NCBI GenBank assembly: GCA_963693365.1
Contig: CAVNZM010000001.1
Span: 13,316,418 to 13,380,417, forward strand
Length of the DNA: 64,000 bases
Source of the DNA: Amoebidium appalachense
Taxonomy: Eukaryota; Protista; Ichthyosporea
Reading direction: 5' to 3'
Shown piece by piece: positions 240-22,671 of the stretch; within the stretch, counting starts at the first letter, position 1, and each line of letters begins with the position of its first letter. Under the pieces are notes generated by a model. The model was not told the DNA's origin. It saw only the letters and a list, made by a program, of their open reading frames with translations, and searched no databases. The position numbers were made by a program, and so were the translations under genes.

Positions 240-3200
240 AGATCGACATGTGCAAGATCAACAATGGGGGGTGCCTACACACCTGCACCAAGATCCCCGG
301 CACCTACGTCTGCAGCTGCAACACGGGCTACCAGCTGGCAGACGACGGCAAGGGGTGCCGCGGTACAGAACCCCCCCCCCCCCCCTCCCCAAAGAAACAT
401 AATAGATAAAGAAATAGGTATAAATCTCTCCTCTGCCTTCCCTCCCCTACCCCCCCCCCCCCACCCACCCACCCAAACGCCGCTGCCACCTGCCCTCCTG
501 CCCGCGCCCTTCTTCCCTAGGCTACCCCGTCACACGTCAAAACATATGCATTATAAGAAGTGTGTGCAAACACTAACAGGAAAACACAAATGGGCAGAAT
601 GGTTTTCGTCTCCCTTCCCTCCCCCCCCCCCCCCCCCTTCCCCCAACCCCCCCCCCCCCCCCCTCCCCACCACCACCACTAACCTCCGTCCAAGAGTTTA
701 AACACGCACATGCGTAGAAAACAATCAAGCTACCACCAGCACACACACACACAGAAGCAGATAAGCATACAGACAAACAACAGACAAACAGAAAATCCGG
801 AAATAGGATTGAGAAGTTGATCGGAGGAGGCGCATGGAACACAAGAGTAACTGAGCGCGGTGCGGTACATATCTAAAAGGCGTAAAACACCAATTATAAA
901 TAATTTAATGATTATTTAAAACAAAAAACAAAATTAAAATTCTGCAGATGAGGATGAATGTGCGGCAGATTTTCGGGCCTGCCCGCAGCACAGCACGTGC
1001 ACAAACGTCATCGGCAGCTACACGTGCAACTGCAACAGGGGATATACGGGGGACAACACGGCATGCAATGGGTGTGTGTGTGTGTGTGTGTGTGTGTGTG
1101 TGTGTGTGTGTGTGTGTGTGTGTGTGTGTGTGTGTGTGTGTGTGTGTGTGTGTGTGTGTGTGTGTGTGTGCATTTGTGCGTGCATGAACATTTGTGCGTG
1201 CGTGTGCGCATGCGTGTGAGTGTTGGGGGGGAGCTGGGGGGAGAAAGGGGAACTTGCAGGGGCGGGACTGGTTGTGGTGTACGTTTGCTTGCATGTGTGT
1301 GTGTAATTTTTCAAGGTCTGTGCAGGAGTGTTTCTAAACGGGCAAAGCATGGGGGTATCCAAGACATGTCTCTTTATGTGTCTCACAGTGTGTATATCCC
1401 CAATATCTCACACTGTGTTTATCCCGTATATCTAACACCGTGTATATCCCGCCTGCAGACATTGATGAGTGTGCCAATGGCACGCACACATGCAGTGACA
1501 TGTGTGCCAACACGATGGGCTCATTTCTGTGCCGCTGCAAGAAGGGTTATCTGCTGCTATCCAATAATGCTACGTGCAGAGGCAGGTCTTCCCTGCTCCA
1601 CCCCCCCCCCCCCCCCCCCCCCTCCTCCCGCCCCCCTGCCCCCATCCACCAACCCTTCCCTCCTCCTCTCCGTCTCCCCCCCCCCCCCCCCCCCCCCTCC
1701 CCCACTGGAGGATCATGTTTTTGCGTTTTGCACGAGGCAGTGAGGATTACCTTGAACGAGAAGGAAACGGGGAAGAATTGTTTGAACTGTTGTTGGGAGA
1801 TATACATTTAAGTACTGCTCACGGAAGAGATTATTCTACACTGTTGTTGCTCAAAGATGTCTGAGCTGTTTCAGGGAGTGGTTTGTTTGGACAATTGTTC
1901 GCTCGATCGAAAGCAACAAGCAAAATAATGTTGAAATAGCTCCACGGAATAACGATAGTGACCACGAAACATTACAGATATTGACGAGTGTGAAAAAGAC
2001 TTTGGGGGCTGTAAGTACAACTGCATAAACAACAACGGCTCGTATGAGTGCACGTGCGCACCCGGGTACGCCCTCGAGAAGGACAGGCGGTCGTGTGCAG
2101 GTGTGTGTGTGTGTGTGTGTGTGTGTGTGTGTGTGCGTGCGTGCGTGCGTGCGTGCGTGCGTGCGTGCGTGCGTGCGTGCGTGCGTGCGTGCGTGCGTGC
2201 GTGTGTGTGTGTGTGTGTGTGTGTGTGTGTGTGTGTGTGTGTGTGTGTGTGTGTGTGTGTGTGTGTGTGTGTGTGCGCGCGTGTGTGCATGTGTGTGTGT
2301 GTGTGTGTGTGTGTATGTGCGCACGCGCGTGTTTGTGTATGTGTGTGTGTGCCTGTACGTCAGAAAAGAACCACCCTCCCTTCCCTCCCCCCCCCCCCCC
2401 CCCCTCCAATTTCTTACAAACCTTCCCACGGCATTCCAAAGTTGACGATCTAGTATCCACCCCCCCGTCCCCCCCCTCCTCCCCCTTCTCACTCCTCCCC
2501 CTCCCCATCCCCTCCCCCCAGTCCCCTTGTTAACCTTATCCCTCGGATCACTACATGAACCCTTCACCCTTGACCCGCTGGTTTACTAAACTACTGTCTC
2601 CCCCTCCCCCCCCCCCCCCCCCCCCCCCCCCCCCCCCCCCAAAAAAAAACACAAAAACACACGCACGCACGCACGCACGCACGCACTCACGCACGCACAC
2701 ACGCACACACACACACACACACACACACACACACACACACACACACACACACACACACACACACACACAGATCTCAACGAGTGCAGGAAGAACATGCACA
2801 CCTGTCACGTCAATGCATTCTGCACCAACACACTGAGCAGCTTCATGTGCGGCTGCAAGACTGGGTATAACGGGGATGGTGTGCACTGCAATGGTATGCT
2901 ACCACCCCCCCCCCCCCCCCCCCACCCGCGACCTCACAGGATTTTTGGTTTTTGTGATGTTTTTGTCTTCTGTGTTTTGGTGTCTCCTCCATAGTTGCAA
3001 GCCTCTTATGCATACAAGCCCCCCCCCCCCCCCCCCCCCCCCCTCCCCCCCCTCCCCCCGTTCCCCTGCCATTGGACATAACAACACCTGGATAGAAAGA
3101 GAACTAATGTTGTGCATCAACACACCTATCAATATCTCCCCCCCCCCCCCCCCCCCCCGGCACTCTTTCCACCGACACACAAGCACACATACATGCGCCC

Positions 3201-20500: not shown

Positions 20501-22671
20501 TCTCTCTCTCTCTCTCTCTCTCTCTCTCTCTCTTTTTTTTTCTTTCTTTTTTTTGTTTGGGCGCCTGTTGAGTCATTTGTTGTTCTGGTTGATTACCTGT
20601 AATCTTCGCTTATTTATGTGTGTGTGTGTGTGTGTGTATGTATGTTGTGTGGGGTTGCACACACCGGTGTCTACTTTTCTTCCTTTTTTTTTTCTCTCCA
20701 CACACTTCATCTGTCCACTTCTGCATACCCCCTTTCATAGCTATAGACACACTTCACACATTGCTTTACGCGCACGCATGCACACACCGCTCTGTTGGCG
20801 ACAGCTCCCTTGGAACCCATGCGGCATGTTACCCGCCAGCCTAACATAACTCGGACTATCGATTTGGCGTTTTTCAAGCCCAAAGCAATGGGTGATACCA
20901 TATTTCCGGCTGACATCCGGGGGCATAGCTTTCCGTTCGAAGGGCGTTAAAGCTCCACCCTAGTAAGCGTGTTACTACCCTGCGGCGTGGGTCAAATCTC
21001 ATATTTTCCCCTCTGATTGCGAATTCTGCGGCCTTCGGGACTTAGTTCTTTTCAGCTGGTGTAGTATGTTAGCCAGGGAAGTATCGACTTAGGTAGCGAC
21101 GGGGGAGCTTCCTAGAAGCCCCGTCTCCTGAGTTCCTATCTATATTTTTCTTGCTTCTGCTTACTGCTGCAACTTTAACCCCCGGCCTTTCCCGCTGCCC
21201 TTGCCTGCATAAGCAACCCTGCTCGTCTCTGATCAAGACGGGTGACCTACCCATGTTCAAGTGAAACAGTATCTGAGTTGGGTTTCGTTAACGAGGTGAA
21301 TAGGTCGAAACTCGGGTACTGTGGATGACGTGGGCCCCCCCTGAGGATGGGCTCTGCTTATTATGCATACTCTTTATGTATGGCTTGCATTCTGCATCGT
21401 GTTATCCATTTGTTTTTGTGTACTTCGTACTTTTTGATGCATTCAAACCCCCTCCGCCCCCCCCCCCCCCCCCCCCCCCCCCCCCCCACCACCACCACCA
21501 CCACCACCACCACCACACACACACAATCACCCACACACACACCACTCAGCCCGTACAATAAACTAACCCCCCCCCCCCCCCCCTCCAAAAAAAAAAAAAT
21601 ACAGGTGACGCTCATCTGTCCGGATGGCACGGCACCCAAGACAGCGCCAAACTTCAACTCCCCAAGCTACGCCATGTTAGGCCTAACCACCTCCAACCGA
21701 CCAATCACGGTGCCGAATGAAAAGCCAAAAGAGGAAGTCATGACGTCATACGACCGTGACTGTCTTGACGTCAACTCCACCTTTTCCGCCTCCACTGATT
21801 GGCTCACGCCGGCTCCAGCGCCGACCAGCGGCGGGTACCCCTACCACTACGGCGGTGTCGACTATGAGGTAATACTCGACTGGATCCTCCCCCCTCCCCC
21901 CCTGTGCCTCTCTTCGCCTACCCCCCCCCCCCCCCCCCTCCCCCGCGGTCCCTCGGCCTTCCCCCTTCGACCCCCCCCCCCCCCTCCCTCTCTCTCTCTC
22001 CCCCCCCCCCCCCCCCCTCCCCCCCCCCCCCCCCCCCCCCCCCCCCCCACACACACACACACACACCGCCACCACCACAACCCCTCACCCCCCCTTCCTC
22101 GTCCTTAGCACGTTTCTTGTTTGAGCTTCAAGCAAAAGCCATGCTCTCTCCGTCTGTTTTGCCCTATTGAGCAGATTGAATTTAGTACGGTACGTAACCG
22201 CATGTTGATTGATGGCAAGTGACTTCAAAGGCAGGTGTTGCTGGCCCCGACTTTACCGTACCCTCTCAACTCCTAGCTATCCTGCTGCCCTCACTGTACT
22301 CACTCCCATTATGCCTGCGCCACCCCCCCCCCCAAACACACACACACACACACATTCTTTCTCCCCGCCCCCCCCCCCCCCCCCCCCCCCCCTCCCCCCT
22401 CCGTCACCCCACAACCACCCACCACACACACACACACACACTCACTCTCTCGCTCTCTCTCTCTCTCTCTCTCTTACCCTCCTCTTCCCCCCTCCCTCCC
22501 TTCCTCCCTCCTCCCCCCCCCCCCCCCCCCCCCCCCCCACACACACACACACACACACAGGACACAACTACCGTCAGCACGCAGAGCCTTGGGCCCTACT
22601 ACAACCGGGACACGCACGAGTCTTCGTTTGAGCTGTACTCCCACCAGCAGCACAGCCCAGAAAACACGTGA
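240..22671 (+). CDS. EGF-repeat / hexapeptide beta-helix receptor tyrosine pseudokinase (5'-partial, 28 exons, ~1520 aa in window)
   Basis: Phase-consistent exons: 240-362, 948-~1073, 1459-1581, 1978-2100, 2771-2893, 3484-3606, 4085-4210, 4842-4961, 5447-5569, 6061-6338, 6849-7174, 8148-8350, 8963-9291, 10009-10230, 10783-10960, 11752-11958, 12397-12545, 13635-13881, 14512-14732, 15230-15363, 16089-16243, 16956-17036, 17545-17644, 18162-18204, 18835-18900, 19856-19996, 21605-21868, 22561-22671 (TGA). All acceptors are AG; donors are GT except one GC (1582). The exon 2 donor is ambiguous by 3 nt. Start codon and signal peptide lie upstream of the window. Confidence 0.88.
6087..13690 (+). other. 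Hexapeptide-repeat (left-handed beta-helix-like) ectodomain region, ~640 aa over 9 exons
   Basis: Continuous [LIV]-G-x-x-[STAVN]-x periodicity, e.g. [71 protein letters not shown]. Confidence 0.85.
13078..13160. repeat. Intronic 26-bp tandem repeat (~3 copies)
   Basis: (ataagcacagactcaggcatacac..)x3. Confidence 0.8.
13737..13814 (+). other. Single transmembrane helix
   Basis: [26 protein letters not shown] followed by the basic stop-transfer RKQREK (type I topology). Confidence 0.9.
14590..19950 (+). other. Tyrosine-kinase-fold domain, predicted catalytically inactive
   Basis: [45 protein letters not shown] and LMKHCW...RPTF are TK-type motifs. The catalytic loop reads [12 protein letters not shown] and the DFG position reads KLSHFAL. 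Confidence 0.88.
19679..19893 (+). repeat. ~53-bp tandem repeat (4 units) overlapping a splice acceptor
   Basis: atgtg(t/c)ggatatacaNgagatatacaa(c/g)ctg units at 19679, 19734, 19787 and 19840; the last unit forms the acceptor and exon start at 19856. Confidence 0.85.
20368..21450 (+). mobile_element. ~1.1-kb non-coding interspersed repeat, copy 1 (intronic)
   Basis: Near-identical to 57647-58810, from tgcagcatccctaagacccc to gcattcaaaccc, including internal (CT)n and (GT)n tracts. No convincing ORF, TIR or TSD seen. Confidence 0.85.

Follow-up and report, generated by a model that had tools for sequence, protein, structure and literature searches.

A predicted receptor of Amoebidium appalachense with EGF modules, a long hexapeptide beta-helix and a tyrosine pseudokinase

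A gene on the forward strand of a 64,000-nucleotide stretch of the Amoebidium appalachense genome (contig CAVNZM010000001.1, positions 13,316,418 to 13,380,417; this whole stretch is hereafter the window) was reconstructed from 28 spliced exons (240-22671), which together read as a single open frame (1,519 codons; stop codon TGA at 22669-22671). The order encoded is nine EGF modules, ~640 amino acids of hexapeptide repeats, one predicted transmembrane (TM) helix, a tyrosine-kinase fold and a tyrosine-rich tail. This combination of EGF modules, left-handed beta-helix (LbH), TM helix and pseudokinase appears to be undescribed. With a probability of roughly 0.55, we interpret the product as a single-pass co-receptor in which a rigid beta-helix spacer holds the EGF array off the membrane and whose output is non-catalytic.

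Results

Gene model and exon joins

Candidate exons in the window were set to splice dinucleotides. Each of the 27 introns has an AG acceptor; 25 have a GT donor, one has GC (after 1581) and one GG (after 1070). The GG donor lies within ATGGGTGTGT and probably reflects a homopolymer that is off by one base in the assembly; the end of exon 7 reads GATG, followed by GTGTGT in the intron. Exon 1 opens at an acceptor (240), so that the 5′ end of the gene lies upstream of the window. The coordinates of the encoded features are collected in Table 1. When the remainder of the 64-kb window was searched with the model by tblastn, no second copy of the gene was found, and a pseudogene was ruled out by the 1,519 open codons, the spliced contig described below and the integrity of all 54 EGF cysteines.

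Table 1. Features of the receptor gene, in positions of the window.
Feature	Position	Strand	Remarks
EGF modules, aa 1-368	240..5569	+	nine exons, one module each, all phase 1-1
EGF exons	240-362, 948-1070, 1459-1581, 1978-2100, 2771-2893, 3484-3606, 4085-4210, 4842-4961, 5447-5569	+	
Distal beta-helix (predicted), aa ~391-849	6061..10960	+	~27 coils of 17 residues (6-6-5)
Distal-helix exons	6061-6338, 6849-7174, 8148-8350, 8963-9291, 10009-10230, part of 10783-10960	+	
Membrane-proximal beta-helix (predicted), aa 850-1011	10867..13670	+	9 coils of 18 residues (6-6-6)
Proximal-helix exons	end of 10783-10960, 11752-11958, 12397-12545, first 12 codons of 13635-13881	+	
Single TM helix (predicted), aa ~1032-1059	13731..13814	+	peak 19-residue hydropathy 2.9 at aa ~1030-1057; followed by RKQREK
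Juxtamembrane region and tyrosine-kinase fold	14512..19996	+	from Pfam and frame
Kinase exons	14512-14732, 15230-15363, 16089-16243, 16956-17036, 17545-17644, 18162-18204, 18835-18900, 19856-19996	+	
Catalytic loop HQALCAAH instead of HRDLAARN	16186..16209	+	no catalytic Asp, no Asn; aligned to MET (HRDLAARNCML)
HFA at the DFG position (KLSHFALS)	16979..16987	+	no Mg-binding Asp; presumed position, placed by motif order
Pro/Ser/Thr-rich C-terminal tail	21605..22671	+	exons 21605-21868 and 22561-22671; 9 tyrosines; ends TGA

Part of the model could be compared with assembled reads. Three runs (X1-X3) come from one sample that we guess to be RNA; two of the three contain this stretch, and the alignment covered 5215-9450. 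A contig of run X1 (4,320 nt, depth 30) matched 5456-5568, 6060-6336, 6847-7173, 8147-8350 and 8967-9291 with no mismatches and at consecutive contig coordinates, so that this probable RNA joins the ninth EGF exon to the first four repeat exons. The 5569/6061 join between EGF array and repeats, which an earlier sequence-only reading of this DNA had marked for confirmation, is thus spanned, and the 6338/6849 join was also present in run X2. By arithmetic, the contig implies ~1,155 nt of upstream sequence beyond what exons 1-8 provide, which could leave room for up to ~9 more EGF modules or another domain; assuming exons 14-17 as modelled, its other end would fall at ~13800, within the TM exon.

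Further downstream, the hexapeptide register continues across the 12545/13635 join and supports it. The TM-to-kinase join (13881/14512) is supported by matching phases, by an intron of ordinary length (630 nt), by a TM-to-kinase spacing of ~50 amino acids as in receptor tyrosine kinases (RTKs) and by the fact that no Met precedes the N-lobe of the kinase: reading back in frame from the alpha-C helix of the first kinase exon, a stop is reached before any Met, and this exon therefore needs another one upstream. The phase-consistent frame from EGF modules to kinase that the sequence-only reading had proposed was recovered, with the joins from the ninth EGF exon to the fourth repeat exon covered by the contig.

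Repeated sequences were also observed within the gene. A tandem duplicate at 12522-12680 and 12682-12870 (136 of 157 aligned bases identical) contains the end of exon 17, its donor and the start of the intron, with a possible cryptic donor beside the repeat-to-TM join. A ~1.06-kb element, probably non-autonomous and mobile, is found in intron 26 (20447-21490) and, at 94% identity, 37 kb downstream (57789-58851), and an array of ~55-bp units lies within 19679-19870, its final copy overlapping the acceptor of kinase exon 26.

EGF array and hexapeptide stalk

EGF-clan Pfam models were matched by all nine EGF exons, seven of which passed the EGF_CA cut-off. Each module has six cysteines, and modules 2-6, 8 and 9 are of the calcium-binding type.

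From amino acid 369 to ~1012 the protein is built from ~110 short units, each five or six residues long (114 when a few flanking units are counted). The units follow the pattern [LIV]-G-x-x-[STAVC]-x and are arranged in threes with a period of 17-18, as in the LbH clan. Two registers succeed each other, since hydrophobic periodicity is 17 in amino acids 391-849 (z 6.7; 0/1000 shuffles), with no signal at 18, and 18 in amino acids 850-1011 (z 5.7; 0/1000 shuffles), with no signal at 17. When the repeat exons were aligned with MAFFT, offsets and gaps were exactly 17 or 34.

Homology of the repeats was evaluated with Pfam and with the sequences of the PDB. Hexapep was matched by 8/8 repeat exons, three of which passed its cut-off singly, and LbH_EIF2B by 7/8; when ten repeat stretches were scanned, all matched LbH_EIF2B at E≤1 and none matched the bactofilin or pentapeptide models. 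A profile of the 17-residue part gave 23 matches among PDB sequences, all of them LbH proteins by molecule name (GlmU, gamma-carbonic anhydrase, AGPase, eIF2B-epsilon, LpxD and acyltransferases), and the last repeat exon matched 17 sequences with LpxA and other acyltransferases at the top. The ESM Atlas neighbours shown were Hexapep/GMPPB_C clusters or unnamed, the best at 0.95, with recognition under the threshold of the tool. The hexapeptide/LbH assignment made by the sequence-only reading was thus upheld by homology, and its estimate of a stalk of ~35 rungs and 15-20 nm agrees well with ours: the rise of an LbH is 0.48 nm per coil, which for ~36 coils gives a rod of ~17 nm. Recent exon duplication as the origin of the stalk was ruled out by mixed intron phases and by the 16-24% identity between exons.

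The fold was modelled with AlphaFold2 (AF2) on 85 residues (5 coils) of ~620, with ten overlapping in-register rows of the repeats as alignment. The model was all strand, a triangular parallel beta-helix with a predicted local distance difference test (pLDDT) score of 72; with a single sequence the pLDDT of the repeats was only 35 and no usable fold was obtained. The top structural Z score, 9.9, was obtained with GMPPA/B and eIF2B. That the repeats form a beta-helix is therefore well supported. The hand of the left-handed beta-helix previously proposed was not reproduced by the model, which appears to have the correct contact pattern in the mirror hand; for this reason the left hand of the stalk, which we consider probable, rests on homology.

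Sequons along the stalk

Hexapeptide repeats are known mainly from enzymes inside cells. The stalk contains 29 N-glycosylation sequons (25 of them NxT), compared with 10.6 ± 2.8 in 5,000 shuffles (maximum 22; 29 was reached in 0/5000). By comparison, the cytoplasmic part of the predicted protein has 1 sequon in 460 residues, and a bacterial GlmU-like control (n = 1) has 1 in 225. This excess, and the position of disulfide-type EGF modules on the stalk's side of a single TM helix, make an extracellular stalk likely on the basis of sequence. The sequons are unevenly distributed, with 24 in amino acids 369-747 (6.3 per 100 amino acids) and 5 in amino acids 748-1012 (1.9 per 100), and over the 25 coils tabulated they occupy all three faces of the helix (7, 9 and 8). 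With sequons on every face, a parallel trimer becomes less likely over most of the rod's length, although the proximal coils might still form one. A three-copy complex prediction of the exon at 11754-11957 scored 0.03 ("no answer") and was counted neither way.

TM helix, kinase domain and tail

The TM exon retrieved generic single-pass proteins only from the ESM Atlas, all below 0.9. Among the six kinase exons scanned, PK_Tyr_Ser-Thr matched five and missed the 26-residue exon 16958-17035; in each exon with a match it scored above Pkinase. The domain is thus of the tyrosine-kinase type, which is recognised by its subdomain signatures (LAARNC-type loop, DVWxxG, CW..RPxF). The loop exon gave 46 PDB matches, and every one is named as a tyrosine kinase, MET in most cases; the first kinase exon had no match among PDB sequences.

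The Gly loop GAGAFG (amino acid 1114), the beta-3 lysine in VAVK (K1138) and a candidate alpha-C glutamate are kept. The catalytic loop and DFG positions have lost their aspartates (Table 1), and judged by these two motifs (HQALCAAH and HFA) the domain is a pseudokinase, as the sequence-only reading had claimed. Sequencing error behind these substitutions was ruled out by the several codon changes involved and by the agreement of five other exons with the contig, at 0 mismatches.

No Pfam match was found in the tail exon 21605-21868. The tail holds YxN and YxxQ motifs, for which SH2 domains have preferences.

Search for relatives

No relative was confirmed for the repeat exon 8965-9291 (0/268 candidates among longer proteins) or for the catalytic-loop exon (0/2 candidates); the repeat exon 6849-7172 gave 0 matches at E≤0.001 against 1.84 billion representatives, and 0/233 pattern matches in metagenome contigs were confirmed. 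With the repeat profile, 1 of 7,991 candidates was retained, a GlmU-like protein of 455 amino acids. These searches used single short pieces, and are thus weak evidence of absence.

Judged by titles and the openings of abstracts, the literature retrieved on hexapeptide or LbH domains in RTKs, ichthyosporeans, choanoflagellates or extracellular settings describes no receptor of this kind. The string "hexapep" has 0 occurrences in the main text, figure legends and supplement text of Suga et al., 2014 (PMC4342544), and neither "hexapep" nor "LbH" occurs in the main text of Yeung et al., 2021 (PMC8662651). The sequence-only reading knew of no RTK family with such an ectodomain, and none was found in the text of Suga et al. 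(2014). The gene may nevertheless be among the incomplete or divergent IchRTK20 entries of the same study.

Other features of the window

Downstream of the receptor gene a tandem duplication was observed (23370-24946 and 26000-27587; 1,164 bp at 97.6% and 496 bp at 91% identity), with a 122-codon open reading frame (ORF) inside it (23791-24159; weak FlgN-like match). A 31-bp tandem array lies at 25654-25999. A LINE-like reverse-transcriptase fragment (29441-30187; RVT_1, E 6.6e-19) lies between duplicated segments at 27973-28969 and 31022-32083. An ORF with MORN repeats (38327-38983; E 3.4e-13) is uninterrupted amid intron-dense surroundings. Two multi-exon genes follow: one at ~41776-50000 encodes leucine-rich repeats (models matched in exon 44037-44276), and its apparent start, MGNSNS, resembles by eye a myristoylation signal; the other, at ~53490-59410, has a weak DEP-domain match at 55501-55647 (E 0.0028).

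Discussion

The co-receptor we propose would have type I topology, with the beta-helix outside the cell. A rigid, N-glycosylated and monomeric rod would span the cell coat and place the EGF array ~17 nm or more above the membrane, where the calcium-stiffened array, together with any upstream domain, would contact a ligand or a surface. Output would need no catalysis if the receptor served as a scaffold and an active tyrosine kinase partner phosphorylated the nine-tyrosine tail; an added allosteric contact with the partner kinase is conceivable, as for EphA10/EphB6 and HER3.

Several observations weigh against this interpretation. The spacer role, the partner and the ligand are purely inferred. 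All joins after 9291, including 12545/13635 and that between TM and kinase exons, come from genomic reading alone, and the TM exon (13635-13881) reads through its donor and meets a stop in frame after 8 nt of intron. The windowed part of the gene shows no signal peptide, which can be ascribed to the 5′ end lying outside the window, and basic residues are present on both sides of the TM helix. The sequon excess is partly explicable by the repeat consensus, which has Asn at unit position 4 and Thr at position 6. No homologue was retrieved, so that conservation lends no support to any of the features. As to the fold, the AF2 model superimposes on left-handed structures with a root-mean-square deviation (rmsd) of ~10-11 Å despite its top Z scores there, and on right-handed solenoids (TibA, bactofilin, pentapeptide repeats) with 2.1-2.4 Å at somewhat lower Z; Foldseek with this model gave nothing at E≤0.001.

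That fit to right-handed solenoids would be expected if the repeats were hexapeptide-like in sequence only and formed a right-handed triangular beta-helix of the bactofilin or autotransporter type. There is a precedent in bactofilin itself, for which homology modelling gave a left-handed helix and nuclear magnetic resonance a right-handed triangular one (PMC4672760, in the part covered). We nevertheless hold a right-handed stalk to be highly improbable, as all sequence evidence leads to the hexapeptide LbH clan, the top Z scores go to LbH proteins, and right-handed solenoids are a known artefact of AF2 with sparse alignments, here of 10 rows: according to the portion consulted of the curli study PMC10192328, they are frequently built in contradiction to experiment. 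It is harder still to credit that the gene stops in the TM exon and encodes a membrane-anchored EGF/beta-helix adhesion protein, the kinase exons being a separate or decaying unit. The in-frame stop 8 nt beyond the 13881 donor, the end of the X1 contig (probable RNA), which by arithmetic would lie within the TM exon, and the loss of the catalytic motifs would all suit such a protein; yet the first kinase exon, having no Met before the alpha-C helix, requires an upstream exon, the phases match, the 630-nt intron is of ordinary length and the ~50-residue spacing is that of RTKs, and the exons for kinase and tail stay open in a common phase up to the stop.

Other alternatives concern the function of the rod. 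Its flat faces could themselves bind, in an adhesin- or lectin-like way, and read a repetitive ligand such as a polysaccharide or a host surface. The outward columns are indeed Thr-rich (Thr in 7/25 and 8/25 coils at coil positions 6 and 17), amino acids 748-1012 carry few sequons (1.9 against 6.3 per 100), and Suga et al. (2014), in the text of PMC4342544, propose that the adhesin-like I3 repeats of ichthyosporean RTKs sense the outside. This reading is nonetheless unlikely, given that up to 24 glycans would cover the distal faces, the sequon-poor part adjoins the membrane and is the least exposed place, and many of the Thr residues belong to sequons. The sequence-only reading had suggested that the stalk trimerises the receptor, as LbH domains do in LpxA, GlmU and gamma-carbonic anhydrase; the nine membrane-proximal 18-residue coils would be the most plausible site. 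LpxA-type acyltransferases are homotrimers and are the top PDB matches of the last repeat exon, and this segment is poor in sequons. But the distal 27 coils, which make up three quarters of the helix, belong to the 17-residue type, with best profiles from eIF2B-epsilon and GMPPB, which are not known to be homotrimers; sequons occupy all three distal faces (7, 9 and 8 over 25 coils), and no helical trimerisation domain follows the beta-helix. Trimerisation is thus unsupported, and we regard it as doubtful. A two-part ruler, in which a glycan-coated distal rod is combined with a bare, LpxA-like proximal segment that sets the oligomer state, possibly three-fold where animal RTKs are two-fold, would mean that a cytosolic fold of enzymes and translation factors had been exported to the surface of a premetazoan cell and lengthened to ~36 coils; we put it forward quite tentatively beside the monomeric spacer.

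The stalk shares consensus and coil lengths with eIF2B-epsilon/gamma, GMPPA/B, AGPase and GlmU (17 residues) and with LpxA, LpxD and gamma-carbonic anhydrase (18 residues). Those LbH domains are intracellular, whereas here ~36 coils, sequon-rich and without inserted catalytic loops, link EGF modules to a predicted TM helix; those domains have, to our knowledge, ~10 coils or fewer, and this stalk would be several times longer than any natural example known to us. Beta-helices outside the cytosol occur among the fold-search rows in the spruce budworm antifreeze protein (left-handed), the SV2 luminal domain and autotransporter adhesins (right-handed), but their repeat families differ from that of the stalk and no kinase is attached to any of them.

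Like the protein described here, the receptor pseudokinases EphA10, EphB6, HER3, PTK7, ROR1/2, RYK and STYK1 are single-pass proteins with a tyrosine-kinase fold without catalytic residues, as far as they are covered in PMC13259870. EphA10, with HRGxxxxH and GFG in Table 2 of that paper and an intact Gly loop, has the closest pattern of loss, although none of the eight human pseudokinases tabulated there keeps the beta-3 lysine and the alpha-C glutamate with both Asp lost, the combination indicated here, where the glutamate is a candidate. Their ectodomains are unrelated to the EGF/LbH ectodomain. The families IchRTK1-20 and CorRTK1-4, as presented in the text of PMC4342544, are likewise lineage-specific and domain-shuffled, some bearing EGF modules and some an adhesin-like beta-repeat (I3; PbH1 labels in Fig. 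S1); the I3 motif of ichthyosporean RTKs, GGA(V/I)(Y/F), is a different repeat from the hexapeptide.

A tyrosine kinase of the metazoan type agrees with a holozoan source (PMC4342544), and DNA so dense in introns and rich in repeats would be consistent with the description of ichthyosporeans in PMC11286789. Only so much can be concluded from one gene for which no relatives were retrieved. Within that limit, the receptor adds an ectodomain absent from the holozoan RTK catalogue in the text of Suga et al. (2014), suggests that hexapeptide beta-helices are usable outside the cell and at great length, and points to an independent origin of receptor pseudokinases outside the known animal families. 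LbH repeat geometry has also served for a synthetic scaffold whose initial model had 40 repeats (PMC7890094, in the part covered); with ~110 units, the stalk would be a natural counterpart, a long and glycosylation-tolerant rigid rod. The gene makes receptor height and non-catalytic signalling testable in probable unicellular relatives of animals.

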